From the NCBI GenBank assembly GCA_964479475.1, contig CAYZMI010000005.1, forward strand, positions 11,819-64,909: 53,091 nucleotides of DNA, given 5' to 3'. Under the pieces are notes generated by a model, which was given only the letters and a program-made list of their open reading frames with translations, ran no database searches and was not told the DNA's origin. Shown here one piece after another: positions 887 to 51,301 of the stretch. The position numbers and the translations under genes are program-made. This DNA comes from an uncultured Rhodospirillaceae bacterium. Its GTDB lineage: Bacteria > Pseudomonadota > Alphaproteobacteria > MPNO01 > UBA2964. Each line of letters opens with the position of its first letter. Within the stretch, counting starts at the first letter, position 1.

Positions 887-985
887 ATGACCCTCCCTCA
901 TAGTTGGTTAGCGCCAGCTTCAATACCCAATCCTTTATCAGGGAGCATTGGCCAAGAGATTTGGTTGGCGCACACGGAATTGTCT

Positions 986-4825: not shown

Positions 4826-4829
4826 TCAA

Positions 4830-5477
4830 ATGGTACGACAGGCAGACTGGTATATAGACTTCGTCTCCCCTTACCCCTATTTACAACTTCCGAAGTTTGA
4901 AGGATTTCCCAAAAACTTTAATATCCGAGTAATCCCGGTCCTATTTTCTGCACTTCTTCAACATTGGGAAAATAAAGGACCTGCAGAAATTCCCGCCAAG
5001 CGGCTTCAAACATATCGCTATTGTCACTGGCTCGCCCACAAAAGGGGGATCCCGTTCAAAACCCCGCCGCGGCATCCCTTCAACCCGATACCGTTGTTAC
5101 GATTAGCGGTTACAGTCGCAGACGACCTCCAAGCTATCAAAATTATATTTCATCATATTTGGGGTGAAGGCCAGGATGGCCAGGACCCCAGTTCGCTTGC
5201 CGCTTTAGGCCAAAAACTGGGTATCAGGGATGTTGAAAAACGGACCAGCGACCAGGCGGTGAAGGACAAATTGCGGTCTAATACAGATGCTGCCATTAAA
5301 ACCGGGGTGTTTGGCGTGCCCACTTTTGGTATTGGCAATGAATTGTTTTGGGGTGATGACGTGACCGATATGATGCTGGATTATGTAGCAAATCCTGATT
5401 TCTTCACGAGTGGCGAACTGAGCAGGCTCGCTAATCTACCAGTTGGAATGGAGCGCAAGGAGAGTCGATTAAGATAA
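4830..5477 (+). CDS. 2-hydroxychromene-2-carboxylate isomerase-like protein (DsbA fold, no CxxC)
   Basis: WYIDFVSPYPYL at the N-terminus and GVFGVPTFGIGNELFWGDD near the C-terminus are typical of HCCA-isomerase/DsbA-like proteins. I chose the internal ATG at 4830. Confidence 0.7.
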   Translation: MVRQADWYIDFVSPYPYLQLPKFEGFPKNFNIRVIPVLFSALLQHWENKGPAEIPAKRLQTYRYCHWLAHKRGIPFKTPPRHPFNPIPLLRLAVTVADDLQAIKIIFHHIWGEGQDGQDPSSLAALGQKLGIRDVEKRTSDQAVKDKLRSNTDAAIKTGVFGVPTFGIGNELFWGDDVTDMMLDYVANPDFFTSGELSRLANLPVGMERKESRLR

Positions 5478-5839
5478 TCGGCCTTTGAAGTTCGCATCAA
5501 AGTATTGGTGGTTGAATTAAATCCCGATAAGCATTTAACCCTTTAACGGCCACGTGTTCGAAATATTGCGTCGATTTTTAAAAGGCAATGACTGTGAGAC
5601 ACACGTAATGAATCGTGACTAAAAACCTAAAATTTAGTAATTGATATTCTAAATGGGTAGAAAAATTTTGTAGGTGGGGTATCAGTATTAAATTCCGTGG
5701 AGACTAGTAACAATACCTAAATTTTCGACACTGCAGATAGAGTCCTTGTTCAACAGATAGTGGACCATATGAAGTTACTGTTTTGTCCGATTCTCTTGGC
5801 CGATGCCGTTCAAGCAGGTCGAGAAAAGGGAAAATTAAT

Positions 5840-6574
5840 ATGCTGACACTTTATCACGGCGTAACATCAACCTGTTCTAAACGCGTCAGAATTACGCTCG
5901 CCGAAAAGGGAGTTGACTGGGATAGTGTTCATTTAGATCTCGCCCAACGCGAGAATCTCGATCCCCAGTACCTTAAGCTCAACCCAAATGGTGTGGTGCC
6001 AACCCTGGTTCATGACGGCCACATAATTTATGAATCCAATTTTATCATTGAATATTTAGACGATATTTTTCCCGAACCCCCGTTGCGTCCGGCAGACCCA
6101 TACGACCGCGCTCATATGAGGATTTGGATGGATCAGATTGAGCACGTGCTACATCGTAATATCAACACTGTCTCATGGATAAAACAGGGTCGCTATAGGA
6201 GATTTGACGGATTGACTGAAGAACAATTACAGGCTGTATACGACAGTCAGGCTACGGAAGAAAAGCGAGCACTCCTGAAGAAAAGGCTCAAAGAGGGGGT
6301 TTCACAAGCGGACTTAGATTTCGCCGAAGCACGCGTTGCGGAGGTTCTCGATAGGATGGAAGACCAACTACAAGACCGCCCATGGTTGTGTGGGGTCGAG
6401 CTAACCCTCGCAGATATAAGCGTTGCACCATTTATCGAACGGTTCGAGGCCAACGATATGCCCGGGCTGACCGATTGGAACAAAAGACCCAAGCTAGGCA
6501 ATTGGTGGCAACGAATAAATACGCGCCAATCATTCAAAACCGCGTTCGCCTTCCGACCACCCGAGGTAGGATAA
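5840..6574 (+). CDS. Glutathione S-transferase family protein
   Basis: MLTLYHGVTSTCSKRVRITLAEKGV...NPNGVVPTLVHDG..IYESNFIIEYL matches the GST N-terminal thioredoxin-like domain. An AAGGGAAA RBS precedes the ATG at 5840. Confidence 0.8.
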   Translation: MLTLYHGVTSTCSKRVRITLAEKGVDWDSVHLDLAQRENLDPQYLKLNPNGVVPTLVHDGHIIYESNFIIEYLDDIFPEPPLRPADPYDRAHMRIWMDQIEHVLHRNINTVSWIKQGRYRRFDGLTEEQLQAVYDSQATEEKRALLKKRLKEGVSQADLDFAEARVAEVLDRMEDQLQDRPWLCGVELTLADISVAPFIERFEANDMPGLTDWNKRPKLGNWWQRINTRQSFKTAFAFRPPEVG

Positions 6575-6575
6575 A

Positions 6576-7646
6576 TTGACACTATTCCTTACGAATGACG
6601 AAGTGGAACAGCTCGTATCTGTGGAAGACGCCATCGAAGTGTTGGAGCCAACGTTTGCAGATCTCGGCGGAGGGCGCCTATCGAGCAGGCCCCGCACACT
6701 TAATTACACCGGCCTAGGCGATGGCGAATTCTACCTATACTCCAGCATGGATGCATCCGTACCGCGTTATGGCGTCCATCTCATACGGATGACGTCAGAG
6801 CATTTGTCACGAAAAATGGTCGCTGGTTTTCCGCGCCGATTTCAGATTCCAAACCCTGCTGGGAAGTTTTCGGGTTTGATAATTATGTTCAGCATTGAAG
6901 ATCACTCACCGCTAGCATTGTTCCAGGACGCCGTACTAAACCGGACTATGATAGGCGCCACCAGCGGCATTGCCGCTAAATATATCAGTCGCGAAGACAG
7001 CGAGGTCATGGCACTATTGGGTGCGGGTTGGCTGGCTCCAACCCAAGTAATTGGCCACTGTGCTGTGCGGCCAATCCGTGAAATTCGGGTCTATGGCCCG
7101 ACCGAAGAAAATAAGATTAATTTATGCGAAAAAATGGAGGGTCGGGTTTCAGCAAAATTAATCCCTGTGAACAGCACGGAAGAAGCACTCCAGGGTGCCG
7201 ACATAATCGCTTGCGCGACAAACTCATATGAACCTGTATTCGATGGCGCCATGCTCAAACCTGGCCATTACGTGGGATCCCTACAGGTCGGGGAACTCGA
7301 CGATCTTACTCATGAGACCGCCGATACGATTACTGCGCGGGCGCGAGAGCCGGCTACTATTTGGCATATGAATTCAGGTGAGGAACCACCAGATCAGCTT
7401 TGGCTAGACCGCTGGAAACCGCACTGGAACGAAAAGCTAAAATTCTTAGGTGAGATCGTAGAGGGACTTGATCAGGCGCGCACCCGCAATGACGATATTA
7501 CGCTATACGGCGGTGTCGGCACAGGCCCCTCAAGCGGGCTGGGTTTACAATATATTCCAGCTTGGGTTGCCTACCAACGCGCTAGAGAACAGGGTGTCGG
7601 CTTCGAAATTCCCGATGAGTTGTTCCTACAGGACGCACATCCGTAA
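6576..7646 (+). CDS. Ornithine cyclodeaminase/mu-crystallin family enzyme (paralog 1 of 3)
   Basis: It has an LGAGWLAP Rossmann motif and OCD-like overall length. The N-terminus MTLFLTNDEVEQ and the C-terminal ...HP match the two paralogs at 28132..30312. That alignment supports the TTG start, which has a GAGGTAGGA RBS. Confidence 0.8.
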   Translation: MTLFLTNDEVEQLVSVEDAIEVLEPTFADLGGGRLSSRPRTLNYTGLGDGEFYLYSSMDASVPRYGVHLIRMTSEHLSRKMVAGFPRRFQIPNPAGKFSGLIIMFSIEDHSPLALFQDAVLNRTMIGATSGIAAKYISREDSEVMALLGAGWLAPTQVIGHCAVRPIREIRVYGPTEENKINLCEKMEGRVSAKLIPVNSTEEALQGADIIACATNSYEPVFDGAMLKPGHYVGSLQVGELDDLTHETADTITARAREPATIWHMNSGEEPPDQLWLDRWKPHWNEKLKFLGEIVEGLDQARTRNDDITLYGGVGTGPSSGLGLQYIPAWVAYQRAREQGVGFEIPDELFLQDAHP

Positions 7647-28131: not shown

Positions 28132-29211
28132 TCAAGGGTGCACTGTCTCAGTAAACCAATCCGTCGGCAGTTCCTGCCCGATTCCTAATTCTCTTGCCTT
28201 TTTATTTATGAGGTACCCCGCGGCGGCGAATTGGTACCCCATACCATTGTTAAAAAAACTGCTAATTTGGTCGTCGTTCGTTCGCCCTTCCCGACGCCCT
28301 GCCATAATGTCGGGGAACGTCGGTAGGGACGCGTGAAATTCATCGCGCTCCATGCTGTAATTACCTTTCCCTTTTTCTTCACCAATTTGTACATCATGCG
28401 TATAAATAAGGCGCGCATGATCGTTGTAATGAAGCAAAGTCATCAGATCGACCCGTGGCCAGGCTTTTTTATCTAACTCAGTCGCTCCTGGACGAATTGT
28501 CCCGATATGCATACCCGGTTCTAGCCAGGGATCCAAAAACACTGGCGCCGATGTGTTAGTTGCGCAATGAATGATCTGCGCTCCTTTGCACGCATCTTCA
28601 GCACTACCGTAGACACGGACCTCCTTTCCAAGCAATGCACTCATTTCCTCAGCAAACGTTGTGCAATTTGCGTTGTTAGGACTGTAGACGCGAATATCCT
28701 TAAGGGTTCGCACAAGATTGAGACCAGTGAGCTGAGTGCGCGCTTGCCAACCTGAACCTAATATAGCGACTGTATCTGCGTCCTTACGGGCAAGATAATC
28801 GGCGGCTATGGCACTTGTACCGCCGACACGCATACTTTGGACTACGCCATCGGGGAAAATTGCCAATGGCTCGCCAGTGTGAGTACTGAACAAAAGAACA
28901 AGTCCTACATACCGGTCACCAGGGGCAGCCGGAATTTTAACACGACGCATACCGGCCGCCGTTTTGGGAAAAGTCAGAATGTCAGAGTTGATACGAATTG
29001 CCCCTACACCGAATTTGGGAACCACCCCGTCCATGGATTTCAGAGCGTAAAGACCATCTTTTGACCAGGTGGTTGGCGTCACAATATCTGTTCGTACCCG
29101 ATCGCCACCCCGACCTTCGCCCAACTCCACAAACGCGTCGGCCAACACTACAATCAAGTCCTCCATAGTGAGAACCTGTTCCACCTCTTCGTTGGATAAG
29201 ATGAGTGTCAT
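28132..29211 (-). CDS. Ornithine cyclodeaminase/mu-crystallin family enzyme (paralog 2)
   Basis: It has an LGSGWQA Rossmann motif, is 359 aa, and by eye is roughly two-thirds identical to its neighbour at 29233..30312. Confidence 0.85.
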   Translation of the reverse strand: MTLILSNEEVEQVLTMEDLIVVLADAFVELGEGRGGDRVRTDIVTPTTWSKDGLYALKSMDGVVPKFGVGAIRINSDILTFPKTAAGMRRVKIPAAPGDRYVGLVLLFSTHTGEPLAIFPDGVVQSMRVGGTSAIAADYLARKDADTVAILGSGWQARTQLTGLNLVRTLKDIRVYSPNNANCTTFAEEMSALLGKEVRVYGSAEDACKGAQIIHCATNTSAPVFLDPWLEPGMHIGTIRPGATELDKKAWPRVDLMTLLHYNDHARLIYTHDVQIGEEKGKGNYSMERDEFHASLPTFPDIMAGRREGRTNDDQISSFFNNGMGYQFAAAGYLINKKARELGIGQELPTDWFTETVHP

Positions 29212-29232: not shown

Positions 29233-30312
29233 TTAAGGGTGAACGGTTTCAGTAAACAAGTCAGTCGGAAGTTCATGGCCCAGGCCCAACTCCTTCGCCT
29301 TGTTGTAAACGACGTAGCCCGCCGCAGCAAATTGATAGCCCATCCCTAAGTTATTAAGAAAACAGGTGACCTGCGAATCGTCAGTTCGACCATCCAGATC
29401 TCCATTGATGATCTGTGGGAGTGAGGGAAGCGAAGCATGCCAATCGTCGTGCTCCATGCCGTAATTTCCAACCTTATCTTCTCCCACTTGAACGCCATGA
29501 GTGTAAATTAGTTCCGCATTATCGTTGTGATCCAATAGTACAAATAAATCGATATCGGGCCATGCAGCTTTCTCGACCTCTGTAGCGCCAGGACGTACGG
29601 TGCCGATATGCATTCCTGGCTCCAGCCAATCCCGCATAAAAACCGGCATCACAGCATTGGTAGAACAGGCCACCATATCTACGCCCTTGCATGCCTCTTC
29701 ACCGCTGCTACAGGGTCGGACCTCTAGGTTTGTTTCCTCCGACATTTCCTTCGCAAATGCCTCACGGTTTTTTTTATTCGGGCTAAACACCCTGATATCT
29801 GTCAAATCGCGAACCGCCGCGTGGGCCGTCACCTGTGCACCTGCCTGCCAACCAGAACCTAGTACAGCAAGCGAAGTAGCGTCCTCGCGAGCTAGATATT
29901 TAGCCGCAATGCCATTCGTCGCTCCAACGCGCGCGCGCTGCATTACGCCGTCAGGACAAATCACCAATGGCTCACCATTATGGGTACTGAATAACAATAC
30001 GAGGCCGACGTATCGATTATTGGGCGCCGCGGGGACTTTGACCCTACGCATTTCGTTTCCAGTTTGTGGAAATGTAAGAATATCTGAGTTGAGCCTGATC
30101 GCCCCGATGCCAAATTTTGGTATAACACCGTCCATGGACTTTAGAGCGTAAAGACCATCCTCCCGTAAAGTTGTTGGAGTGACAATATCCGAACGCAAGC
30201 GATTACCCCCACGACCGTTCACAAGCTCGATATAAGCATCTTCAAGCGTGGGAACGAGATCCTCCATAGTTAGAATTTGTTCAATATCTTCATTGGATAG
30301 AATAAGTGTCAT
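29233..30312 (-). CDS. Ornithine cyclodeaminase/mu-crystallin family enzyme (paralog 3)
   Basis: It has the same length and termini as paralog 2 (MTLILSNE...FTETVHP) and the LGSGWQA motif. Confidence 0.85.
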   Translation of the reverse strand: MTLILSNEDIEQILTMEDLVPTLEDAYIELVNGRGGNRLRSDIVTPTTLREDGLYALKSMDGVIPKFGIGAIRLNSDILTFPQTGNEMRRVKVPAAPNNRYVGLVLLFSTHNGEPLVICPDGVMQRARVGATNGIAAKYLAREDATSLAVLGSGWQAGAQVTAHAAVRDLTDIRVFSPNKKNREAFAKEMSEETNLEVRPCSSGEEACKGVDMVACSTNAVMPVFMRDWLEPGMHIGTVRPGATEVEKAAWPDIDLFVLLDHNDNAELIYTHGVQVGEDKVGNYGMEHDDWHASLPSLPQIINGDLDGRTDDSQVTCFLNNLGMGYQFAAAGYVVYNKAKELGLGHELPTDLFTETVHP

Positions 30313-31928: not shown

Positions 31929-32684
31929 ATGAGCTTCGAAGCCCTCGCTATTATTTTTATTGGAATTGCTGCCGGATCATTTTTTAAGGGGGCACTCGGT
32001 ATAGGCCTGCCAATCATTGCCATCCCCACGCTGGCCACTTATTTAGGTGTGGAACACGCAGTCGTCGTCATCATCGTCCCGACATTTTTGACCAACATTT
32101 GGATTGTTTGGCGCTACCGTAAGATGGCGGCGGGAGTGCCTCATTTGCCAAAATCCCTAATCGCCGCCGGGATCGGAACAGCAATAGGCGCATTTATTCT
32201 CGCCGAATTAACCGACCAAGCCTTGCTGTGGCTCCTGGTCATCTGGGTTGCAGCCTATTTAATACACCTTGCCATCAATCCCGAATTCAGACTGGAGGGC
32301 CGCGCATCACGGATATTTTCTCCTGTTATTGCGGGGGCTGCTGGACTCAGTCAAGGCTCAACCGGCATTGGCGGGCCTATAGTAGCAACCTGGATGCACT
32401 CCTACCGGTTAGAGAGCCAGGTCTATGTTTTCGCCGCTTCGATTATGTTTCTTGTAATTTCCGGTACGCACTTTTTCACTGCCGCAGGCATCGGCCTTTT
32501 TGACCAGGAAAGATTATTACAGGGTCTACTCGCAGTAATTCCAGCTACTCTTTTTGTTCAGATCGGCATGTGGACCACACCATATATAAGTAAAAAATGG
32601 TTCAATCGGTTAGTAATAGCCATTGTTTGTATCATGGAGATCAAATTGATCTTTCAGGTTACTGGAATAGATTTATTCCGATGA
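31929..32684 (+). CDS. TauE/SafE-family membrane protein (sulfite/anion exporter-like), copy 1
   Basis: 251 aa and very hydrophobic, with 7-8 TM segments and Gly-rich TM motifs typical of DUF81/TauE. Confidence 0.75.
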   Translation: MSFEALAIIFIGIAAGSFFKGALGIGLPIIAIPTLATYLGVEHAVVVIIVPTFLTNIWIVWRYRKMAAGVPHLPKSLIAAGIGTAIGAFILAELTDQALLWLLVIWVAAYLIHLAINPEFRLEGRASRIFSPVIAGAAGLSQGSTGIGGPIVATWMHSYRLESQVYVFAASIMFLVISGTHFFTAAGIGLFDQERLLQGLLAVIPATLFVQIGMWTTPYISKKWFNRLVIAIVCIMEIKLIFQVTGIDLFR

Positions 32685-33409
32685 GCGATTTTACGAAGTC
32701 TGTTATCGCAGTCCGCCACGTATCATTTGAACACCTCGGTACATTTGAAAAGCTCTTCAGACAATGGGGATATGTCATCCGTTATATCGATGCCGGAATA
32801 GACAAAATTTGTATGGAACCTGCGGATACCGCCGATTTACTTATTATGCTGGGTGGCCCAATCGGGGCCTATGAAAGCCATACTTATCCCTATTTGGGCG
32901 ATGAAATGAAGCTCATCGAACGACGCCTCAGCAACGGAAGGCCACTGATCGGAATTTGCTTAGGCGCACAACTTATCGCCCACGCGCTGGGCTCGAAAAT
33001 ATATCCCGGAAAACAAAAAGAAATTGGATGGTCGGCGATCAGCCTAACAGAAGAAGGCAAATCATCCCCACTATCGCACATCGCAAATGTTGGGGGGTAT
33101 GTGTTGCATTGGCATGGTGATACTTTTGATTTACCGACTAAGGCAATGCGTCTAGCTACAACCGAATTAACATTCAACCAAGCGTTTAGTTTCGGCCAAA
33201 ACGTACTTGGCCTGCAATTCCATATCGAAATTGAGCCGACCGAGATAGAAAGCTGGCTAATTGGGCATGCCTGTGAAATCTCTACAACCGACACAACCTC
33301 AGTAAAAAATATTCGCTCCGATACGGCTACTCACGGCAGCACTTTAGTAACCCAAGGAGCACGAGTTTTATCCAATTGGATGACGGAGGCAGGGCTTCAA
33401 GCCTGTTAA
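32681..33409 (+). CDS. Class I glutamine amidotransferase-like protein
   Basis: It has IGICLGAQL (nucleophile elbow Cys) and LQFHIE (His-Glu). Its ATG at 32681 overlaps the TauE stop (ATGA). Confidence 0.8.
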   Translation: MSDFTKSVIAVRHVSFEHLGTFEKLFRQWGYVIRYIDAGIDKICMEPADTADLLIMLGGPIGAYESHTYPYLGDEMKLIERRLSNGRPLIGICLGAQLIAHALGSKIYPGKQKEIGWSAISLTEEGKSSPLSHIANVGGYVLHWHGDTFDLPTKAMRLATTELTFNQAFSFGQNVLGLQFHIEIEPTEIESWLIGHACEISTTDTTSVKNIRSDTATHGSTLVTQGARVLSNWMTEAGLQAC

Positions 33410-34035
33410 GTACTCTCGCGGAGTTGAGCGCCGGCCTCATTTTGTAGCATGTGGGCAATCGCCTCATATGGTTGTGCCCCGACAACTCCATAGCCACCCG
33501 CAACAAATGTTGGCACACCAGTTACCCCATAGCTGCGAGATTTTTCCCAATCCGCATCCACCGCATCCTTGAAGCGTTCTTCGTCCAGTGCTTTCCGAGC
33601 ATCGGAACCCGACAGTCCTACGGTCTCTACAAGATCTACCAAAACATCAAAATCTGCGATGTTGTGGTTAGCAACAAAATAGGCCCTGTAGAGCTCCTCG
33701 TGGATAGCATCCCCACCGTCTTGTGTATCTGCCCACTTACCCAACTCTTGGGCGCGACGACTGTTATAAGTATTGGCGCGCTGGCCATAGGGAAGGCCCT
33801 CTTTATCCATCAACCCCTTCATTCGTTCATACATAGCCTTGGGGTCCATACCACGTGCTGCGTACATTTCCGCAACTGACCGGCCTTCTAGGGGAGTTTC
33901 AGGATGCAGAGGGAAATGCACCAATTTTACATAGATGTTGAAGTTATTTCTGAGCTTTTCAATACGCACGGTACTGAGATAGCACCATGGTCAAACATAG
34001 TCTGTAAAGACCTCAAGTGTAATCGGTTCTGCCAT
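33406..34035 (-). CDS. DsbA/FrnE-like thiol:disulfide oxidoreductase with an in-frame TGA at the first CxxC position (candidate selenoprotein, U-P-W-C)
   Basis: The ORF track gives only 33406..33969. The same frame continues upstream: ATG(34035) AEPITLEVFTDYV TGA(33993..33991) PWCYLSTV. A GGGAGG lies 7 nt before the ATG. The family consensus here is F.D..CPWCY. The C-terminal GVTGVPTFV matches the cis-Pro loop of the DsbA fold. Confidence 0.6.
33959..33989 (-). other. Stem-loops immediately 3' of the in-frame UGA (candidate bacterial SECIS)
   Basis: The mRNA reads UGACCAUGGUGCUAUCUCAGUACCGUGCGUAUUGAAAAG. Hairpin A is CAUGGUGC/GUACCGUG, 8 bp including 2 G-U pairs. Hairpin B is UCAGUAC-CGUGC-GUAUUGA, 7 bp, and its G/U-containing 5-nt loop lies 21-25 nt after the UGA. 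I folded both by eye only. Confidence 0.35.
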
Positions 34036-34199
34036 TACTAACCTCCCTTTAAATAATAACTAGTACAATTGCATGGGGACATAGGCATAATAATTACTTG
34101 CTTCGATTGGCAATACTCCACCCGTCTACAATGTGTATGACAAAGTTCCATGTGAGTTTATAGAGCTATCAATTTTTACGCTAATTTTTGTCGTCTTAA

Positions 34200-35057
34200 T
34201 TAGTACGGAATACCACCGGCAATGGATGTACGGTGCAGATGTCTGACCCCCGGTGGCTTAATCCCGCCAACAGCCAGGTGCGCTGTACACCGATTGTCCC
34301 AAAAAACTAAATCACCAACCCGCCACTTGTGCTGGTATATGAATTCGGACCGAATTTGATGACTGAATAGCTCATCCAATAATGGTTGGGCTTCATTGTC
34401 ATCCATTCCATTAATGGCAACAGAAAATCTCGGCGTCACAAACAGAGATTTTCGACCCGTAACAGGGTGCGTGCGGACCATAGGATGAAGAGAATCGGGT
34501 ACATTGATACTGTAATATTCCTTAACGTCACGATCGAACGCCTCAGTGATAGCGCCTCGTGGATTACGACGCCTATCTCGGACATGGATTGCTTTAAGTC
34601 CCTCGATGCGTTGCTTTGTCTCTTCCGACAAAGTTTCATATGCCAAATACATGTTGGCCCAGGCGGTATCTCCACCCTCTTCAGCTACCTCTAATGCATG
34701 TAGCATGGATCCCATGCTTGGCTTTTCGGCATAAGTCAAATCAGTATGCCAAAGTTCCCCAGCATATGCGCCTGTAGCACCTACATATTTACCATCCACT
34801 TTACGATTGCAGAGAACCAAAACTTCAGGGTGATCCGGATGGAGAAATTCCCCCGAAACGCGGACAACGAGCTTACCGAAACGTCGACTAAAGGCGACCT
34901 GCTGCTTTGGGGATAGATCCTGATTGCGAATTACCAAAACTAAATTATTCAACAATGCCTGAGTAAGGGCCTCAATTAAATCGTCACTTACAGCGCCCCC
35001 AACGTCGATTCCCGTCACCTCAGCTCCCAGAGCACCCGAAAGTCGTGTGACTTTCAT
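34200..35057 (-). CDS. TauD/TfdA-family Fe(II)/2-oxoglutarate-dependent dioxygenase
   Basis: It has WHTDLTY (the HxD iron ligands), WDNRCTAHLA (distal His) and an N-terminus typical of taurine-dioxygenase-like enzymes. The ATG at 35057 lies 6 nt after the msrA stop. Confidence 0.85.
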   Translation of the reverse strand: MKVTRLSGALGAEVTGIDVGGAVSDDLIEALTQALLNNLVLVIRNQDLSPKQQVAFSRRFGKLVVRVSGEFLHPDHPEVLVLCNRKVDGKYVGATGAYAGELWHTDLTYAEKPSMGSMLHALEVAEEGGDTAWANMYLAYETLSEETKQRIEGLKAIHVRDRRRNPRGAITEAFDRDVKEYYSINVPDSLHPMVRTHPVTGRKSLFVTPRFSVAINGMDDNEAQPLLDELFSHQIRSEFIYQHKWRVGDLVFWDNRCTAHLAVGGIKPPGVRHLHRTSIAGGIPY

Positions 35058-35063
35058 CGTCAA

Positions 35064-35717
35064 TCAGGCGTTCGCGGCGATCCCGGAGGGACAGACAACG
35101 CCCGTTCCACCAAGCCCGCAATAGCCATTGGGATTTTTGGCCAAATATTGTTGATGATATTCTTCAGCATAATAAAATTCCGGCGCGTCAAGAATTTCCG
35201 TAGTTATTTCATCATAACCGTTTCCTCGCAGCGCCGTTTCGTATGTATGATGCGACGCTTTAACCGCCAGATTTTGTTCAGCAGAGTAAGTATAGACACC
35301 AGACCGGTATTGCGTACCAACATCGTTGCCTTGACGCATTCCTTGCGTGGGATTGTGACCCTCCCAAAATACTCTAAGTATTTCTTCATAGGTCACCTTT
35401 TTGGGATCGAACACCACTAGTACAACTTCTGTATGGCCAGTCATGCCACTACAGACCTCCTCATAAAGTGGATTTTTCGTGTGACCTGCCGCATAGCCCA
35501 CCGCCGTCGAATAAACACCAGGAATTTGCCAAAACAACCGTTCAGCACCCCAAAAACATCCCATACCAAACATGGCTGTCTCCAGCCCCTCATCAAAAGG
35601 TGGAATTATTGGATTTTTGTTAACAAAATGATTGCCCGAGATAGTTATCGGGTTGTCCCGTCCGGGAAGTGCCTTTTCAGCATCGGGGATGGTCAATTTA
35701 TCGGGTGAAAGCCACAT
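35064..35717 (-). CDS. msrA: Peptide-methionine (S)-S-oxide reductase
   Basis: It has the GMGCFWGAE active-site motif (Cys form) and YHQQYL near the C-terminus. 217 aa. Confidence 0.9.
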
Positions 35718-37433: not shown

Positions 37434-39035
37434 CTATGCACGACCAGTGGGAAAGGGGCTCGTGTCGTTTAGTTCTACTAATTGCGATAACATAATTTGG
37501 ACAAGTTCCTCAGCGACAGCGGGACGGTCCGCCCCTTCCCAGAGATTGGCGTTTTCGTCTGGATCTGCCTTTAGATCGTAAAGCTCCCACCAATTGCCGC
37601 AATGATGATAGGTGAGCCGCCAGCGGTCAGTGACCATTGTCCGAACGCGATCGACTTCATTATTATCGAACTGCGGAATAGCGCTATCTTCTTCTATTAC
37701 AATGGCTGAACGCGGCGGGACTTCACTATCGTTCAGGTTCCGTCCCTGCATACCGTTAAAAGGTTGTAGGCCGGCCATAGACAATATGGTGGGTGCGAGA
37801 TCGATAGTGCCCGTTAAATTTTCGCAAACACCTCCTGCAGATTTCAGGGTGGGATCGTAGATAATGCAAGGCACACGAACCAACCCCTGATAGTGTAGCA
37901 TATATTTCAGCATAATGCCGTGTTCGCCCATAAAATCACCGTGATCTGCAGTAAATATCACGACAGTGTTTTCACTTTGCCCAGTAAGTTCCAAGACCGA
38001 CAGAATTTCACCGATCGCGTCATCTACCATGGCAATCATGCCGTAAGTTAAGGCAATAATACTCTTCGCTTCCTCAGCCGTGACTGCAAATGGTTTTAGC
38101 GGACCTTCTCGGTCTGCGGTGCCGGTCGCCAACTCCTCTCTAAGCCATCTCAACGGTGCTAGTTCTCCTTCGTTAAAGGAAGACGAAAGTAAAATGTCAT
38201 CAGGATCATATAAATCCCAATATTTTCCTGGTGGGGTGAACGGATGATGCGGGTCCGGAAATGAGACTTGAAGAAAGAATGGATTGTCGCGATTTGCTGC
38301 TTGGCGTTCAATAAATTCGCAACTTAATTCTTTTACATAAGACGTCGGGTATAAATTCTCAGGTAATGAAGTACGCCACGCTTGTGGCGCCATACGACGT
38401 TGATCGGAAAGAGCGTTGTCTACTCCGGCTAGCGCGCTAGCACCCGGCTGCTTTTCCTCAAGCCAACGTTGATAATCACCACCAACCATATCGCCATGAC
38501 CCGTGCAGATACGGGCTTCCTTAAAGCCGTAAAATGGTAAGCGGACGTCGTGTTTGGGGTCAGACCACAGCCGCGCATTTTCATTGTCATATGCAGGTCC
38601 GGTGAGCGGGCGCCTATTTGCTTCACGCAAGTCTTCTGGCGGAGCTGATTGACCCTCTATTGTCTTAAATTTTAGGGGTGATAGCCGCCCAGTCATGTTT
38701 TGCAAATGGGATTTGCCCATCAGCCCTGTCCAATAGCCCGCCGATGCGAGTAGCTCGACGAACGTCACATGGTCACGCGACAGCGGGATCCCATTATTGC
38801 GCACGCCATGAACCGATGGCATTCGTCCCGTCATGAGGGATGCTCGGTTAGGCTGGCAAACGGGGTTAGCTACGTAAAAACGGTCATAACGGATACCACG
38901 GGTGGCTAGACTATCAATGTGTGGTGTCTTCAATACCGAATTGCCATAGCAACCGAGATGATCGGCACGGTGTTGATCCGTAATGATAAATAAAAAATTC
39001 GGACGATTTTCCATATTGTTAACTACGTGTGCCAT
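37434..39035 (-). CDS. Type I sulfatase-family hydrolase (Cys-type, apparently cytoplasmic)
   Basis: It has FLFIITDQHRADHLGCYG and the formylglycine motif C-Q-P-N-R-ASLMTGR. No signal peptide is evident. Its start overlaps the upstream gene by 13 nt. Confidence 0.85.
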   Translation of the reverse strand: MAHVVNNMENRPNFLFIITDQHRADHLGCYGNSVLKTPHIDSLATRGIRYDRFYVANPVCQPNRASLMTGRMPSVHGVRNNGIPLSRDHVTFVELLASAGYWTGLMGKSHLQNMTGRLSPLKFKTIEGQSAPPEDLREANRRPLTGPAYDNENARLWSDPKHDVRLPFYGFKEARICTGHGDMVGGDYQRWLEEKQPGASALAGVDNALSDQRRMAPQAWRTSLPENLYPTSYVKELSCEFIERQAANRDNPFFLQVSFPDPHHPFTPPGKYWDLYDPDDILLSSSFNEGELAPLRWLREELATGTADREGPLKPFAVTAEEAKSIIALTYGMIAMVDDAIGEILSVLELTGQSENTVVIFTADHGDFMGEHGIMLKYMLHYQGLVRVPCIIYDPTLKSAGGVCENLTGTIDLAPTILSMAGLQPFNGMQGRNLNDSEVPPRSAIVIEEDSAIPQFDNNEVDRVRTMVTDRWRLTYHHCGNWWELYDLKADPDENANLWEGADRPAVAEELVQIMLSQLVELNDTSPFPTGRA

Positions 39036-39640
39036 CCTCGGGCACGCTTAAATAAATCGGTAATCCAATAAGCTTGGGCGCCAACGGCACCAAGTGGCAG
39101 CAAAATCCATACTAGGTCAAACAGCACGAGTATGAGAACGATGAAACAAAAATCCGCCCGACTAAGCTTGTGAAATACATAGATGAGCCAATCACACCAG
39201 TCTTCCGGTTTGCGAATGTCAGAGGCTTCCTGTTCACGGCTTTTCGTGTCCGGCCCCTTCGCTCCCCGCCAATGCATAATCAAATCTACTACATAGTCGA
39301 TGGTTGCACCTATCGCAGCAACTAGGCCAAGCCAAAACCAAATTATGTTATCGGACACATTCCAGGTGCCATATCCCAATGCAGTGAAAAAAGCACTGTC
39401 CACTGCCCAATCAACGAAGTCATCGAATTTAGCACCCCAAATAGAAGATAGACCTTTAAGGCGTGCGATTTCTCCATCGCAATTATCAAGTGTATAGGAA
39501 AAGACTAATAACATCGCGCCGCAAACTGACCAGCCCCACTCACCTCCACTGAAACAAACAACCCCACTAAGCCCGACCAGTAGCGAACACGCTGTGATTT
39601 GGTTAGGGGTCAGTGAGGTTTTCGCTAACACCCGCGTCAA
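39023..39640 (-). CDS. CDP-alcohol phosphatidyltransferase family protein (copy 1)
   Basis: It has the full signature DNCDGEIAR-x8-G-x3-D-x3-D and a multi-TM architecture. The TTG at 39640 is the first canonical start, but the frame stays open upstream (..LFPLIRHFSFW), so the true start is uncertain. Confidence 0.75.
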   Translation of the reverse strand: MTRVLAKTSLTPNQITACSLLVGLSGVVCFSGGEWGWSVCGAMLLVFSYTLDNCDGEIARLKGLSSIWGAKFDDFVDWAVDSAFFTALGYGTWNVSDNIIWFWLGLVAAIGATIDYVVDLIMHWRGAKGPDTKSREQEASDIRKPEDWCDWLIYVFHKLSRADFCFIVLILVLFDLVWILLPLGAVGAQAYWITDLFKRARGWHT

Positions 39641-40809: not shown

Positions 40810-41793
40810 ATGAAGATCGCATCGTACATTGGGTTAGCCATCGGCCTAACCCTGCTCACGGGACTGATTGCTTGGCAGGGGCTAGGCGACGTTGTTGCCA
40901 TTCTATTTTCGACAGGCTGGTCACTCTTACTAATACCGCTCGTTTGGTTTCCAACTGTTCTGCTTAACGCACGATCTTGGCAGTTATTGTTCGCTGCCGA
41001 AAACGCACCGAAATTTGTCCAAGCCTTCCTAGCTCAATGGATTGGCCGTGCCGTCAACACCCTTCTACCTGTCGCGACAATAGGCGGCGAAATTGTTAAG
41101 GCACGCGTTCTTACTTTATGGGGCCTCGATGTCCGGCACACTTCCGCATCAGTTGTCGTCGATAAGACCATTCAGGTCATTACAATTATTATATGGGGAC
41201 TGATAGGTATTATTTTACTCGCTTGGATGTCGCTCGACGATGGGATTGCTGCCACGGGATTGATCGGGCTGACACTACTGGGCTTCGGTGTTGTAGGTTT
41301 TATCGTGGCCCAACGTGCAGGATTATTTGGCTTTATGGCTAAGTCGGCCAAGCTAATTTCAAAAGAAAAATACTTCTCAAATCTACAGGTTACGGCGGAA
41401 GGTATAGATCTTGTCGTCATAGACGTTTATCGGCGCAAAGGCCAAGTCTTTCGTGCCGGAATATGGCGTCTGTCGGCCCTCATATTGCAAACCGGTGAAG
41501 TATGGTTAGCGGCTTATTTGCTTGGGTATCCCATCGGACTAATAGAAGCGTTAATGCTCAAGAGCCTAAGCAGCACACTAAGTGATGCAGCCTTTGTGGT
41601 ACCAAACAGCTATGGTGTACAGGAAGGTGCATTCGTCGTCTTGGGTTCGCTTGTCGGTCTAACACCAGACGTTGCAATTGCAATTTCATTGGCCATCCGA
41701 ATTCGAGAAATTTTAATTGATATTCCTGGTCTAGTTTTTTGGCAAATCACCGAAGGAAAAACCCTGTTCCGACATCGCCGTGACACCCGGTAA
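40810..41793 (+). CDS. UPF0104 / LPG-synthase-TM 'flippase-like' membrane protein (HpnL-like)
   Basis: It has 8 or so TM segments and the LLPVATIGGEIVKARVL motif characteristic of PF03706-type proteins. Confidence 0.7.
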   Translation: MKIASYIGLAIGLTLLTGLIAWQGLGDVVAILFSTGWSLLLIPLVWFPTVLLNARSWQLLFAAENAPKFVQAFLAQWIGRAVNTLLPVATIGGEIVKARVLTLWGLDVRHTSASVVVDKTIQVITIIIWGLIGIILLAWMSLDDGIAATGLIGLTLLGFGVVGFIVAQRAGLFGFMAKSAKLISKEKYFSNLQVTAEGIDLVVIDVYRRKGQVFRAGIWRLSALILQTGEVWLAAYLLGYPIGLIEALMLKSLSSTLSDAAFVVPNSYGVQEGAFVVLGSLVGLTPDVAIAISLAIRIREILIDIPGLVFWQITEGKTLFRHRRDTR

Positions 41794-41957: not shown

Positions 41958-43127
41958 TTGGCTGAACCAGGCACCCTTTTTCTGATTCTATTTGGGTGTA
42001 TTTTCGCGTCGTCGGTCGTCTATGTCTTGCTAGCGGCAATCCAGGTATCCAAACAAAAGTCTCGACCTAAAACAAACAAGACCTTCGCACCCGAAATAAC
42101 AATTTTAAAACCGCTTTGCGGGCTCGATTATCAATTATACGAAAATTTATGTAGCTACTGCGAACAAGACTATTCTTCAAATTACCAGATAGTCTTTGGC
42201 CTAAAGGATTGTAGCGACCCAGCATTATCTGTGCTTGAGCAAGTAAAGTCAGAATTTCCTGACCACGACATCTATGTCGTCATTGATGAGAGAGTTTCCG
42301 GTACAAACTATAAGGTCAGTAATCTAAAGCATATGTATCACCACGCAAAATACGACATTGTAATTTGTGCAGATAGTGATGTCCGCGTGAATCGCGACTA
42401 CCTCTCATCCGTTGTAGCACCTTTCAATGATCCAATAGTGGGTGGTGTTACCTGCGCCTATACGGCATCTTCGCATCCTGATTTCGCGTCAACACTTGGA
42501 GCTATGTATATCAATTCTTGGTTCTTACCATCGATACTCATCCATAACGCATTCCAAAATTTTCGCGGATGTTTCGGACAAACGATAGCCGTTCGTCGCC
42601 AATTGCTTGATGAGGTTGGTGGATTTGATTCCTTGAATTCTGTATTGGCTGACGATTACGTTCTCGCAGAATTGATTAGAAAACGAGGATTTAAGGTCGT
42701 GCTTTCCGACTATTTCGTTGATAATGTGGTGCGTGAAAATGGTATAGCCGGCCTTCTCCACCATGAACTTCGATGGGCACGGACAATCTTGTCCATTGAG
42801 CCATTTGGCTATTTCTTTTCAGTATTGACATTCACTATCCCGATATCTTTGTTAACAGCGGTCATAAATTGGTCAATTACAGGATCCGTGTTAGTTAGCA
42901 GCATGCCTGTTCTCGCAGCCTGTGCGTTAAGAATGGCGTTAAATTGCCAAGTGAGTAGCAAATTTAAATTGACAGCGCAAAATGCTATTTGGTTGATACC
43001 GTTGAGAGATTGTTTGAACTTCTTCGTGTGGTGCACCAGTTTTTTTGGACGACGTGTCCGTTGGCGCGAAGAGGAATTTGATATAAGAAACGACGGCAAG
43101 TTGGAGCTTACGGAGCAACAACGTTAA
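41958..43127 (+). CDS. GT2/GT21-type glycosyltransferase (ceramide-glucosyltransferase / HpnI-like)
   Basis: An N-terminal TM segment is followed by ITILKPLCG, CADSDVRV (D-x-D) and HELRWART (Q/HxxRW). It is 389 aa. The TTG start has an AAAGGAA RBS. Confidence 0.8.
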   Translation: MAEPGTLFLILFGCIFASSVVYVLLAAIQVSKQKSRPKTNKTFAPEITILKPLCGLDYQLYENLCSYCEQDYSSNYQIVFGLKDCSDPALSVLEQVKSEFPDHDIYVVIDERVSGTNYKVSNLKHMYHHAKYDIVICADSDVRVNRDYLSSVVAPFNDPIVGGVTCAYTASSHPDFASTLGAMYINSWFLPSILIHNAFQNFRGCFGQTIAVRRQLLDEVGGFDSLNSVLADDYVLAELIRKRGFKVVLSDYFVDNVVRENGIAGLLHHELRWARTILSIEPFGYFFSVLTFTIPISLLTAVINWSITGSVLVSSMPVLAACALRMALNCQVSSKFKLTAQNAIWLIPLRDCLNFFVWCTSFFGRRVRWREEEFDIRNDGKLELTEQQR

Positions 43128-44554
43128 TGATGAAATCTCTCTTTCTAAACCCGCCCTCCTACGACGGCTTTGACGGAGGTGCGGGCGCTCGATATCAATG
43201 CAAGAGGGAGATCCGTTCTTTTTGGTATCCTGTTTGGCTTGCACAACCGGCAGCGCTAATTCCAGGCAGCCGGTTGATTGATGCGCCACCCCGCGGTCTT
43301 TCACTCGACGATGTACTGCCGTTAGCAAATGACTATGAACTTCTCATATTGTATACGAGCACACCGACATTTCCTTCCGACGTGAAGGTTGCTGAAGAAT
43401 TCAAAGCTGCTAATTCAAAACTGTTGATTGGATTTTGTGGTGCCCATGTCGCCGTCAACAACCGCATGACAGTCGTCGCCTCGGATGCCATCGATTTTGT
43501 GTGTGGCAACGAGTTCGATTTCACAATTAAGGAAATTGCCGAGGGCCGATCCCTTTCCGAGGTATACGGCATAACATATAAATCAAACGGTCAAGTTATT
43601 GTAAATCCAGAACGCGAAATCCTCGAAGACATGGACCTACTGCCGTGGGTGACGGATGTTTACGAAAGAGATCTCGTAGTTGAGGATTATTACAATGGCT
43701 ACATGTTGCATCCATACATGTCTCTTTATACCGGTCGCGGCTGCAAATCCCGTTGTACATTTTGCTTATGGCCACAGACTATTGGCGGCCACAATTACCG
43801 AACGCGATCCGTGGCCCATATCACAGCGGAAATAGCATCTGCGCGCGACCGGTTTCCTCAAGTCAAAGAGTTCTTTTTCGACGACGACACTCTAACTGAC
43901 AACATCGCACAGGTTGAGGCATTGGCTAGGGAACTTGGTAAGCTAGGTGTAACCTGGTCCTGCAATGCCAAGGCCAATGTACCGCGTAAAACACTTGAAA
44001 TTATGAAAAGTAATGGCCTTCGTCTTCTGACTGTTGGTTATGAATCTGGAAATCAAAAAATTCTCAACAATATGAAAAAAGGTATTCGGCTAGATTTTGC
44101 GCGCCGTTTTACTTCCGATTGCCACGATCTCGGGATATTAATTCACGGCACATTCATCGTGGGATTACCAGGTGAAACTCCCACAACCATAGAAGAAACC
44201 ATTGCGTATGCAAAAGAGCTAAATCCTAAAACCATCCAAGTCTCTCTGCCGGCGGCTTATCCCGGCACTTACCTTTACGAGCAGGCAAGACAGCATGGCT
44301 GGCTGGAAGAGCAAGGAGACAGGCAGCTTGTAGGTGTTCTAGGCAACCAAGTAAGTGTCCTAAATTACGATCACTTAACCAGCGATGAAATTTTTAAGGC
44401 CGTCGACGATTTTTATAAACGATTCTATTTTCGACCTAAAAAAATGGGGGCGTTAGCAATGGATATGCTGAAGAGTCCTGCGGTAATGAAACGCCAAGTT
44501 CGGGAAGGTGCTGAATTTTTTCGATTCCTTTGGCAACGTCAGAACGCAACTTGA
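43127..44554 (+). CDS. B12-binding-domain radical SAM enzyme (HpnJ-like)
   Basis: It has the CxxxCxxC motif GRGCKSRCTFCLWPQ at about residue 205, after a B12-binding-like N-terminal domain. The N-terminus LFLNPPSYDGFDGGAGARYQCKREIRSFWYPVWLAQPAAL resembles HpnJ as I recall it. TAATG coupling links it to the glycosyltransferase gene. Confidence 0.8.
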   Translation: MMKSLFLNPPSYDGFDGGAGARYQCKREIRSFWYPVWLAQPAALIPGSRLIDAPPRGLSLDDVLPLANDYELLILYTSTPTFPSDVKVAEEFKAANSKLLIGFCGAHVAVNNRMTVVASDAIDFVCGNEFDFTIKEIAEGRSLSEVYGITYKSNGQVIVNPEREILEDMDLLPWVTDVYERDLVVEDYYNGYMLHPYMSLYTGRGCKSRCTFCLWPQTIGGHNYRTRSVAHITAEIASARDRFPQVKEFFFDDDTLTDNIAQVEALARELGKLGVTWSCNAKANVPRKTLEIMKSNGLRLLTVGYESGNQKILNNMKKGIRLDFARRFTSDCHDLGILIHGTFIVGLPGETPTTIEETIAYAKELNPKTIQVSLPAAYPGTYLYEQARQHGWLEEQGDRQLVGVLGNQVSVLNYDHLTSDEIFKAVDDFYKRFYFRPKKMGALAMDMLKSPAVMKRQVREGAEFFRFLWQRQNAT

Positions 44555-44575
44555 ATTCGACACGCCATTCGCGAA

Positions 44576-45178
44576 ATGGCTTTTAATTCATGGTCCCATA
44601 AATTCGTACGAGTGCTGGTCAAGCCACTGGCAAATTCGGTCGTTACACCAAATCACTTAACCACTATTCGTTTATTGACCGGATTGGCTGCCTGTATAGC
44701 ACTTGCTTTCGGCGATCGCACTTGGGACATCTGGGGAGGTGCACTATGGGTAGTGTCAGCGCTATTCGACCGGGCAGACGGTGAGCTGGCTCGCATCAGT
44801 GAAAAGTATAGCGAATGGGGGCATATTTACGATTATTATTGTGACGTTACTATTCTTGGGTTGTTTTTTATTGGCGTGGGTATTGGCGCGCAAGACAGTG
44901 GCTATGGCTCCTGGACAATTCTGATGGGCACGATAGCGGGATTTGCTGCAGCTTATTGCACTGTTTTGGCTGAAAAATTTGCTCAAACACAAGGTAATCG
45001 CGCCAAGGTTTACCCCAGCAAATTTGGTTTTGACTTTGATGACATCCTTTATTTATTTGCACCCATCATATGGTTAGATTGGCATGTGGAATTTGTCATT
45101 GCGGCGGCATTTGGCGCGCCCATTTTTGTGTTAATTACGAGGTGGAAATTAGGGAGAACGGATCGTCAAATACCTTAA
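44576..45178 (+). CDS. CDP-alcohol phosphatidyltransferase family protein (copy 2)
   Basis: It has the signature DRADGELAR-x8-G-x3-D-x3-D. It is 200 aa, multi-TM, and a paralog of 39023..39640. Confidence 0.75.
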   Translation: MAFNSWSHKFVRVLVKPLANSVVTPNHLTTIRLLTGLAACIALAFGDRTWDIWGGALWVVSALFDRADGELARISEKYSEWGHIYDYYCDVTILGLFFIGVGIGAQDSGYGSWTILMGTIAGFAAAYCTVLAEKFAQTQGNRAKVYPSKFGFDFDDILYLFAPIIWLDWHVEFVIAAAFGAPIFVLITRWKLGRTDRQIP

Positions 45179-49680: not shown

Positions 49681-50537
49681 ACACCTATCATTAAAAATAA
49701 CTCTCGGGCGATACGGCTAGATGGTTCACACATATCAAAGACGATATCGAAATGGTTCCGATCAGGTGTCACAAAATGGCTACAAGGCCAACCGCGCCCT
49801 AGCCAGGCTTCTGCATAAATTTTGCTTTGACGTTTGAATTCATCTGTTTCGTGCTCGCCACAGGTCACTATAAGCGAACAACCATTTTCGGGAAGATGGT
49901 ATACCGGGCTATTCCGGTACGCCGATTCTTCATCCAACAAGGCCCATTCATTGATGTTAGCAAGCCGAATGGGTTCTAAATCATGCAAACCGCTAAAGGA
50001 AATGGCCCCCTTGATCAGGTCTTCAGGCAAACCACGTTCTTCTCGCCACCCTCCAGCAAGCATCATTCCCGTCAAATGGCCACCTGCCGAGGACCCACCG
50101 ACAAAAATTCGATTTGGATCAATACCCAATTCTTTGGTGCCTTCCCGCCATACCCATTCCAAGGCGTCTCGGCACTGCCGAACGATTGTGTCGATAGAGG
50201 CCTCGGGTGCTAAGCTATAATTAACGGACACAACCGATATGCCCTTCTGTACAAACGCCGACGCCATAAAATCGCCCTCACGTTGGCTAAGCATTCGCCA
50301 ATAGCCACCGTGAATAAAGATAAACACTGGCGTATTTAAACCGGCCGAAAATCCATCAACAACCTCATCTTTATGTTGTCCGTATGCTATGTCGAGTTTA
50401 CCGGGAACCCGCCGACGAGCCTGATCACTTTTTTCACTGTAAGCCCTAATAAGAGCATCCGCGTTCGATACTGTTTCGCGTGCGCTATACTCTTTGTTCA
50501 GCTTCTTTTGATCATAATCTCGATAGACGTAGGTCAT
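49677..50537 (-). CDS. Alpha/beta-hydrolase fold esterase/arylformamidase-like protein (paralog 2)
   Basis: It has HGGYW and GGSSAGGH. The ATG at 50537 overlaps the TauE-2 stop (ATGA). It aligns along its full length with paralog 1. Confidence 0.8.
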   Translation of the reverse strand: MTYVYRDYDQKKLNKEYSARETVSNADALIRAYSEKSDQARRRVPGKLDIAYGQHKDEVVDGFSAGLNTPVFIFIHGGYWRMLSQREGDFMASAFVQKGISVVSVNYSLAPEASIDTIVRQCRDALEWVWREGTKELGIDPNRIFVGGSSAGGHLTGMMLAGGWREERGLPEDLIKGAISFSGLHDLEPIRLANINEWALLDEESAYRNSPVYHLPENGCSLIVTCGEHETDEFKRQSKIYAEAWLGRGWPCSHFVTPDRNHFDIVFDMCEPSSRIARELFLMIGV

Positions 50538-51301
50538 AGCCACTGCCAATTTTCGATCCCGGTATAGAGCAACCGCACTGCTAATACTGTTAGCACCACT
50601 TGAAAAATTCGACGAAATGCTTGCTCAGGCATGCGATTTAAGACAGCACGGCCAAACATATTACCGAAAAACGCAGTACCGATCATCACAATAACCAGTG
50701 GCAAATATGTTCCAATGGCAAAACCTAGAATGCCAAAGACCACCACTTTTAGCCCATGAACGAGTGTCATGAAAACTGAATGTGTAGCCACATATTGACG
50801 CCGATCCGGACACGCAGCAGCGACATAAGGCGCCATAAGAGTGCCGCTGGAGCCAACGAACATACCAATCAGTGTACCCAAAAGACCAAGCAGAAAAAAT
50901 TTCGTATGGGTATAGGCACGCGCGGCTATCTTTGGCGCCCAACAGACATAGAGGATAAAGCTTCCAAGAATAATTTGAAGAATTGCGGTAGGGAGTGCGA
51001 CTACAACTTTACCACCGATCACCGCTCCCGCGATTGCGCCGAAAAAGAATACAGGCAAGAGTTTTTTCAGGATGTGTGGCCACATTATTATAAAGCGACC
51101 CCCGTTCGTGCCCAACAGTACCATCCCATGAAGGGGAATTAGTACGGCCGGCGGGAATATGGTCGCCATCACTCCGAGCAAAAGAACGCCGCCACCGAGT
51201 CCAGCAACAACGCCGAACGCAGCGGTAAAAAAACTCAAAATAGACAATCCCAAGAAAACAAAGGGCGTAACGCCGGGAACAAGGTCAAATAATTCAATCA
51301 T
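50534..51301 (-). CDS. TauE/SafE-family membrane protein, copy 2
   Basis: 255 aa, Gly-rich and multi-TM, with the same architecture as 31929..32684. Confidence 0.75.
   Translation of the reverse strand: MIELFDLVPGVTPFVFLGLSILSFFTAAFGVVAGLGGGVLLLGVMATIFPPAVLIPLHGMVLLGTNGGRFIIMWPHILKKLLPVFFFGAIAGAVIGGKVVVALPTAILQIILGSFILYVCWAPKIAARAYTHTKFFLLGLLGTLIGMFVGSSGTLMAPYVAAACPDRRQYVATHSVFMTLVHGLKVVVFGILGFAIGTYLPLVIVMIGTAFFGNMFGRAVLNRMPEQAFRRIFQVVLTVLAVRLLYTGIENWQWL

Follow-up and report, generated by a model that had tools for sequence, protein, structure and literature searches.

Does an in-frame TGA at the redox site of a DsbA-like gene end a truncated protein, mark a dead gene, or specify selenocysteine (Sec)? 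The question is raised by a locus in a 53,091-nucleotide stretch of DNA (hereafter the window; G+C content 47.9%) from an uncultured Rhodospirillaceae bacterium, corresponding to positions 11,819 to 64,909 on the forward strand of contig CAYZMI010000005.1 (assembly GCA_964479475.1). We find that the minus-strand frame 34035..33406 very probably encodes a 209-residue FrnE/DsbA-type oxidoreductase, predicted to be cytoplasmic, in which the nucleophilic Cys of the CPWC site is replaced by Sec and the UGA is recoded by means of a selenocysteine insertion sequence (SECIS).

The frame runs from ATG 34035..34033 to TAA 33408..33406 (210 codons) and reads MAEPITLEVFTDYV, then the TGA at 33993..33991, then PWCYLSTVRIEKL. 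Reading of the frame bears out the initial annotation, made from the DNA letters and a list of open reading frames (ORFs), that this TGA is the sole internal stop and that no other lesion is present. It was also right that the mechanical ORF list gives just 33406..33969, a GTG-initiated frame representing the part 3' of the TGA. A GGGAGG does precede the ATG as first noted, but the spacer is 6 nt rather than the 7 nt stated, a matter of counting convention. With Sec replaced by Cys, the product matches the Pfam DSBA domain (PF01323) from residues 6-198, covering positions 1-191 of the 191 in the profile (E=8e-36, 124 bits against a cutoff of 25.6), and its best relative of solved structure is FrnE of D. 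radiodurans (PDB 5cnw/5cp1; E=5e-24, query residues 3-197). The alignment to FrnE puts residue 15 on the first Cys of CPWC, and Cys is invariant at this position in 25 full-length Cys-form homologs aligned to U15, in agreement with the original placement of the TGA on the nucleophilic Cys. The U-P-W-C motif begins 14 residues after Met1, and C18 is the sole Cys of the 209-residue product. Judged from the primary sequence, the first beta-strand follows so closely on the N-terminus that a signal peptide could not be accommodated, which would make the product cytoplasmic. Towards the C-terminus, V174-P175 occupies what we take to be the conserved cis-Pro loop position of thioredoxin-fold/DsbA proteins.

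The TGA is conserved well beyond the window. We scanned one genome per species (GTDB representatives) and retained the 80 best loci with tblastn matches spanning residues 1-206, the hosts of which are uncultured Alphaproteobacteria (many Stellaceae, together with Rhodospirillaceae and MarineAlpha10) and Rokubacteria/Methylomirabilota. At the position of residue 15, 78 of these 80 loci have TGA, far more than chance would give, and the other two (L072 and L080) have TGC; the TGA-bearing species-level loci share 59-71% protein identity with the window product. Upstream of the TGA, an ATG and the peptide xxPxxLE[IV]F[TS]DYV are retained at all loci, with the 14 upstream codons conserved; downstream, all 78 TGA-bearing loci keep PWCYLSTVRIEKL, and the motif kept across the TGA is LE[IV]F[TS]DYV-U-PWCYLSTVR. 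An independent JGI metagenome contig (L081), 98% identical to the window, has the same TGA, ribosome-binding site and start. The protein databases tell a complementary story. The 11 database proteins nearest to the window product (76-98% identity) all lack the N-terminal part, being 180-190 aa long with approximately 88% query coverage, in line with the truncation that the initial annotation expected of gene callers, and roughly half of the 120 best protein matches are likewise 180-190 aa long with the active site missing. Such short homologs are what would be seen if gene callers stop at the same TGA. Full-length proteins (202-210 aa) with a CPWC site appear only at 66% identity or less.

The RNA immediately 3' of the UGA forms a conserved, covarying hairpin that fits the model of bacterial SECIS elements (bSECIS), consistent with the SECIS-dependent recoding originally proposed. 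This model has an apical loop of 3-9 nt with a G at loop position 1 or 2 and, as a rule, G or U after it, an upper stem of 4-16 bp, a UGA-to-loop distance of 16-37 nt and a minimum free energy (MFE) of -7.5 kcal/mol or lower (PMC13188914). In the candidate hairpin, which we denote H2 for the upper stem and H2x when the lower stem is included (Table 1), the loop is 5 nt long with G at position 2 followed by U or G (CGUGC in 71 and CGGGC in 7 of 79 Sec-form sequences), the upper stem has 7 bp and the loop lies 20 nt from the UGA. Hairpin statistics were computed on the 79 Sec-form sequences with 500 column shuffles and slid-position controls. The upper stem alone is 98.2% paired, and at three of its pairs both partners have changed in a compensatory manner, with U-A replaced by C-G in 13 sequences, A-U by U-A in 2, and A-U by G-C or U-A in 4. 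Its covariation score is reached by none of the 500 shuffles, and pairing falls to 18-43% in the slid controls. For H2x as a whole, 96% of cells are paired, with five compensated pairs and 40 compensated cells, and again 0 of 500 shuffles reach the score. One lower-stem pair joins synonymous third positions 27 nt apart, those of Cys18 (TGC/TGT) and Lys27 (AAG/AAA), which combine as C-G in 52 sequences and U-A in 20 and are mismatched in 6. Several of the compensating substitutions leave the amino acid unchanged in one partner of the pair and alter it in the other (e.g., CGT to CGA with ACC to TCC), a mixture that is hard to explain by protein selection alone.

Codon usage and the Cys-form homologs point to the same constraint. 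Among the 79 Sec forms, the codons for L20 (CTC in 74/78), S21 (only AGT or AGC, 75/75), T22 (ACC, 76/77), V23 (GTG, 71/72), R24 (CGT, 77/79) and I25 (ATT, 54/59) are nearly fixed; elsewhere in the gene the same genomes favour CGG and ATC. Normalised codon entropy is 0.41 over codons +1 to +13 versus 0.62 in the other 152 conserved codons (Mann-Whitney p=0.008). The Cys forms make a graded series. One of them (L086; JGI 3300086621 Ga0683539_0209128, gene 501..1121), with TGC at the Sec position, retains a complete hairpin with the loop CGCGC and an energy as in the window, and is apparently a very recent Sec-to-Cys replacement. A second (L087) has partly lost the hairpin, representing intermediate decay, and in three others with TGC (L072, L080 and L088) the hairpin cannot form (-2.9 to +5.2 kcal/mol). 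This is the pattern expected from Sec-to-Cys replacement followed by relaxed RNA constraint.

Two further kinds of variant were seen at this site. One related contig (L085; ENA FUCH22 SAMN21575210 scaffold_104551) has CGA at 498..500, placing Arg at the Sec position while the hairpin and the rest of the gene are intact, and a database protein (P0012) likewise has Arg there and is reported by the gene caller as a full-length 'DYVRPWC' protein; either a T-to-C change has recently inactivated the site, or the assembly or base call is wrong. In the second case, a contig of the genome scan (L051; CAVSNJ010000025.1) has two extra copies of the 5' end of the gene, at 670..743 and 1931..1991, upstream of the intact gene at approximately 3001. 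These copies are 97% and 93% identical over 61-74 nt, include the ATG, the TGA and the first half of the SECIS, and both end inside the SECIS loop, after ...AGTACCGTGCG. Each then runs into unrelated sequence with a common short peptide, ...ALSxPVGxPRFERVW followed by a stop. They look like scars or target duplications from two successive mobile-element insertions at one hairpin site.

Folding of the RNA downstream of the UGA had been proposed as a check on the initial annotation, and its outcome is mixed in that a SECIS-type hairpin is present, but a plain fold returns a different hairpin, H1, which the SECIS overlaps slightly further 3'. H1 is the minimum-energy structure 3' of the UGA (MFE -12.9 kcal/mol with its extension, z=-1.9), and RNAalifold on the 79 Sec-form sequences likewise gives H1. 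The two hairpins share the segment AGUACC and are mutually exclusive. H1 is 98.9% paired across the 79 relatives, with no pair changed on both sides, and we reject it as the SECIS; it has no compensatory pairs and no G in the loop, it is broken in variants that preserve H2, and it lies only 10 nt from the UGA, nearer than the published bacterial model permits. Double changes in three sequences (L060, L061 and L052) keep H2 yet disrupt H1, from which it follows that selection acts on H2 rather than H1. Probably, H1 is a by-product of the fixed Trp-Cys-Tyr codons. The pairing of both H1 and the SECIS at more than 96% across the 79 genomes would also fit a conformational toggle that tunes Sec insertion, for example by SelB/Sec-tRNA availability or ribosome speed, and would make the SECIS of the DsbA-like selenoprotein family regulated rather than constitutive. 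We regard such a toggle as improbable, as the 5' arm of H1 is fixed by the Trp-Cys-Tyr codons, H1 shows no compensation, and two independent SECIS-preserving double changes break it.

Table 1. Coordinates of the predicted selenoprotein gene, its RNA elements and its neighbours in the window.
Feature	Position	Strand	Remarks
Complete predicted selenoprotein gene	33406..34035	-	209 aa + stop; FrnE/DsbA-like oxidoreductase, U at residue 15
Shine-Dalgarno-like GGGAGG	34047..34042	-	6-nt spacer to ATG 34035; identical in contig L081
Predicted Sec codon TGA, residue 15	33991..33993	-	first position of U-P-W-C; aligns to Cys22 of FrnE CPWC
Redox motif U15-P16-W17-C18	33982..33993	-	P16, W17 and C18 invariant relative to 25 Cys-form homologs
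SECIS candidate H2x	33983..33954	-	starts 7 nt after UGA; covariation and fit to bSECIS model
H2x lower stem	33983..33981 with 33956..33954	-	weaker extra pair 33979-33958
H2 upper stem, 7 bp	33977..33971 with 33965..33959	-	begins 13 nt after UGA
Apical loop CGUGC	33970..33966	-	20 nt from UGA
Alternative hairpin H1	33987..33969	-	7 bp + extension, loop AUCUC; starts 3 nt after UGA
Val174-Pro175 codons, motif GVPTF	33511..33516	-	V174, P175 and T176 invariant in homolog alignment
Glutamine amidotransferase	32597..33409		convergent with predicted selenoprotein gene (Pfam)
TauD	34200..35063	-	immediate upstream neighbour, same strand (Pfam)
MsrA	35064..35717	-	upstream on same strand, two genes from predicted selenoprotein gene (Pfam)

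On this basis, the UGA would be recoded co-translationally as Sec under the direction of the hairpin within the coding sequence, to which SelB with Sec-tRNA(Sec) would bind and so deliver Sec to the ribosome. By extension from family knowledge, the U15 selenolate would attack a substrate disulfide, selenium being the more nucleophilic and better-leaving atom, and the intermediate would be resolved by C18, leaving a U15-C18 selenenylsulfide. Thioredoxin/thioredoxin reductase or glutathione may then act as the external reductant of this bond, allowing the product to cycle between selenol/thiol and selenenylsulfide and to reduce or isomerise disulfides of partner proteins. We infer for this genome the presence of sel genes and, likewise, SelB binding, Sec insertion, the substrates and the reductant.

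Several observations weigh against Sec insertion at this locus. No selA, selB, selD or tRNA-Sec gene was found in the window (Pfam on 51 of the 53 long ORFs, and ARAGORN, which found no tRNA gene at all in these 53 kb), and no sel genes or tRNA-Sec occur in approximately 14 kb of sister-contig sequence past both window ends or within 3 kb on either side of the gene at the 80 related loci (ARAGORN on the loci), these stretches, rather than the whole source genome, being what was searched. In Alphaproteobacteria, selC has been described as nested within selB (PMC8124441). The most stable fold of the isolated RNA is the competing H1 at the MFE given above and not the SECIS, which has an energy of -7.3 kcal/mol as drawn, borderline relative to the model threshold of -7.5 and counted here as agreeing with it, and of -9.1 kcal/mol with the upper stem enforced. 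The hairpin matched no Rfam SECIS family even at E<=10; the window as a whole gave no Rfam family at gathering thresholds, and the region 33300..34200 at E<=10 gave only CAESAR, an irrelevant eukaryotic family on the other strand. The DsbA-like selenoprotein family itself is without experimental evidence of selenium incorporation (PMC13188914).

The failure to find Sec machinery in any of these stretches would be in keeping with a UGA that is read through without a Sec system, either by a near-cognate or suppressor tRNA inserting Trp, Cys or Gly or by reassignment of the codon, the hairpin then serving as a generic stimulator. Hairpins 3' of a stop codon can stimulate read-through in general. 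We consider this decidedly improbable. TGA terminates 22 of the 53 long non-overlapping ORFs in the window, including those ending at 32682..32684, 1433..1435 and 35064..35066 that had been cited as ordinary stops in the initial annotation, and the genetic code is therefore the standard one with no reassignment. The UGA aligns specifically with the catalytic Cys, the classic Sec/Cys signature, and the loop keeps its G, with U or G next to it, at the distance from the UGA that SelB-type bSECIS elements have. An enzyme with Trp or Gly in place of the nucleophile would be inactive. Moreover, the family is listed among selenoprotein families (PMC1088965; PMC13188914).

Translation might instead begin at GTG 33969, as ORF finders and public gene calls have it, to give a 187-aa DsbA-fold protein with no redox site, with the upstream 22 codons being an untranslated leader. 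This is very improbable given that protein-level conservation extends over the 14 codons 5' of the TGA (MxxPxxLEIFTDYV), that an ATG and the GGGAGG stand ahead of them, and that the upstream codons supply the first beta-strand and the active site, placed as in the Cys-form homologs and FrnE. No Shine-Dalgarno-like sequence precedes the GTG, which itself sits within the conserved hairpin. Least credible is a pseudogene or a sequencing or assembly error, for which one base change would suffice to turn TGC or TGT into TGA and of which the CGA in L085 shows that point variants do occur at the Sec codon, but which is effectively refuted by the comparative data, as the same TGA is present in the 78 species-level genomes and in the 98%-identical contig, the frame has no other lesion, and both flanks are constrained as protein and the downstream RNA as structure. 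The conserved TGA, the conserved upstream peptide and the independent contig together therefore effectively exclude a sequencing error, a recent pseudogene and a truncated GTG-start protein, and the base-call and pseudogene alternatives that the initial annotation had named as grounds for refutation are answered by the relatives.

Recoding of the UGA as Sec places the window gene in a known family. Zhang, Fomenko and Gladyshev (2005; PMC1088965) reported a 'DsbA-like protein' selenoprotein family (COG2761, UxxC) with nine sequences in the Sargasso Sea metagenome, which substantiates the statement of the initial annotation that DsbA-like UxxC selenoproteins had been reported from ocean metagenomes. 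COG2761 is the FrnE COG. Members of the family were subsequently recognised in a small number of cultured Deltaproteobacteria and Firmicutes (PMC1794560), and a 2026 review lists 'DsbA-like protein form 1, PF01323, UxxC' (PMC13188914). The window gene shares with the 2005 family the PF01323 domain, a UxxC motif with Sec in place of the first Cys, an open-ocean metagenome source, a SECIS directly 3' of the UGA with a G in a small apical loop, and widespread Cys homologs, and it shows no difference of substance. As every sequence-level criterion of the family applies to it, the gene is of an already known kind; its orthology to the published examples AACY01178397 and NIP15863.1 is suggested by the shared COG/Pfam assignment, motif and habitat. 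NCBIfam holds no specific model for the family, and only sub-threshold matches to other (seleno)thioredoxin-like models were obtained.

Members of the FrnE subfamily are thiol oxidoreductases of the cytoplasm that have the DsbA fold and a CP(W/F)C site, and the D. radiodurans enzyme acts as a disulfide isomerase and reductase and confers protection from cadmium and diamide (PMC8945050). Many members have a C-terminal CX4C motif that helps to regenerate the active site, which is lacking in FrnE of S. roseofulvus and D. maricopensis (PMC8945050). Of the features that define the subfamily (PF01323/COG2761/cd03024), the window protein has the DSBA domain, a site of the CP(W/F)C type and no signal peptide, and it lacks the optional C-terminal CXXXXC. 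Compared with D. radiodurans FrnE (DR_0659; 5cnw, 5cp1) it is matched over its full length, with a CPWC-type site at the same position, no signal peptide and, as the sequence alignment suggests, probably a common DsbA fold with helical insertion. The two differ in that FrnE has Cys where the window protein has the predicted Sec, and in that FrnE has a C-terminal CX4C (residues 239-244) whereas the window protein ends at residue 209 with no such motif, thereby resembling the S. roseofulvus and D. maricopensis proteins. Because this tail is missing and there is no other Cys, the reductant of the window protein must differ from that of FrnE. The RNA element can be compared in the same way with the E. 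coli fdhF-type SECIS and the bSECISearch consensus, with which it shares a location within the coding sequence just 3' of the UGA, a small loop with G then U, and a stem length and UGA-to-loop distance within the model ranges. It differs in having no primary-sequence similarity and no Rfam SECIS match, its energy is borderline, and its 5' arm is overlapped by a more stable competitor.

Annotation of 51 of the 53 long ORFs with Pfam indicates ordinary chromosomal metabolism around the predicted selenoprotein gene, with TauE, a sulfatase, Rieske oxygenases and glycosyltransferases farther out. No conserved operon partner was identified; MsrA, TauD and all other neighbours are not kept beside the gene in the 80 related loci, and the gene thus appears to be stand-alone. 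MsrA is a peptide methionine sulfoxide reductase with a catalytic domain starting at residue 46 of 217, and hence with an N-terminal extension. Its terminal TGA abuts, in the same frame, the TTG start of the TauD-family dioxygenase, and the two are genuine separate genes and not a read-through fusion. An all-frame scan for other selenoprotein genes in the window gave no candidate, as each remaining pair of frames joined by a TGA consists of two adjacent recognisable genes, including amidase/dehydroquinase, MsrA/TauD and radical-SAM/CDP-OH transferase. A further protein with a DSBA domain (PF01323, E=1e-24) is encoded at 4791..5477 on the plus strand; it has S-P-Y-P in place of CxxC and no active-site Cys, resembles the 2-hydroxychromene-2-carboxylate isomerase/GST-kappa type and is no selenoprotein candidate. 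Its gene is adjoined by a glutathione S-transferase gene (5783..6574, plus strand).

Elsewhere in the window there are three ornithine cyclodeaminase/mu-crystallin paralogs within 53 kb, two of them in tandem (28132..29211 and 29233..30312, minus strand) and the third at 6576..7646 (plus strand), as well as two TauE exporters (31929..32684 and 50534..51301) and a sulfatase (37434..39035). The cyclodeaminase paralogs, TauE, TauD, the sulfatase and the Rieske oxygenases suggest a region for organosulfur, amine and aromatic catabolism. A compact lipid-modification-like cluster at 41958..45178 (plus strand) comprises a family-21 glycosyltransferase, a radical-SAM protein and a CDP-alcohol phosphatidyltransferase, and is preceded by an LPG-synthase-TM protein (40810..41793); a second CDP-alcohol phosphatidyltransferase lies at 39023..39640 (minus strand). 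Sister contigs carry the region on to recA and alaS, and the best named relatives of RecA (84-89% identity) and of an ABC-F protein (63-65%) belong to Rhodospirillaceae/Rhodospirillales metagenome-assembled genomes. Exact-protein matches were found in the open-ocean assemblies ENA LUOE20 (SAMN05991682/-696/-717), in run SRR5002404 and in JGI 3300032006; from the sample names we take these to be samples from Station ALOHA. Exact-product look-ups for MsrA and for the ORF 491..901 gave no match.

That the family exists, has a UxxC motif and occurs in the sea has been known since 2005, and the window gene opens no new biological question. What is added here is a covariation-supported SECIS structure that is unlike the naive minimum-energy fold, the predominance of the Sec form (78/80) in the closest species-level relatives from soil and sea, and the recognition that nearly all entries for these genes in public protein collections are shortened. 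With all 11 of the closest proteins and about half of the 120 best matches lacking the active site, a redox enzyme is being systematically mis-called, and it is a widespread one, occurring in marine and soil Alphaproteobacteria and in Rokubacteria. The practical value of the finding lies in annotation. The covariation-backed SECIS model could serve to re-annotate the DsbA-like selenoprotein family. For the host, an uncultured open-ocean alphaproteobacterium, the gene is the mark of what is probably a selenium user.

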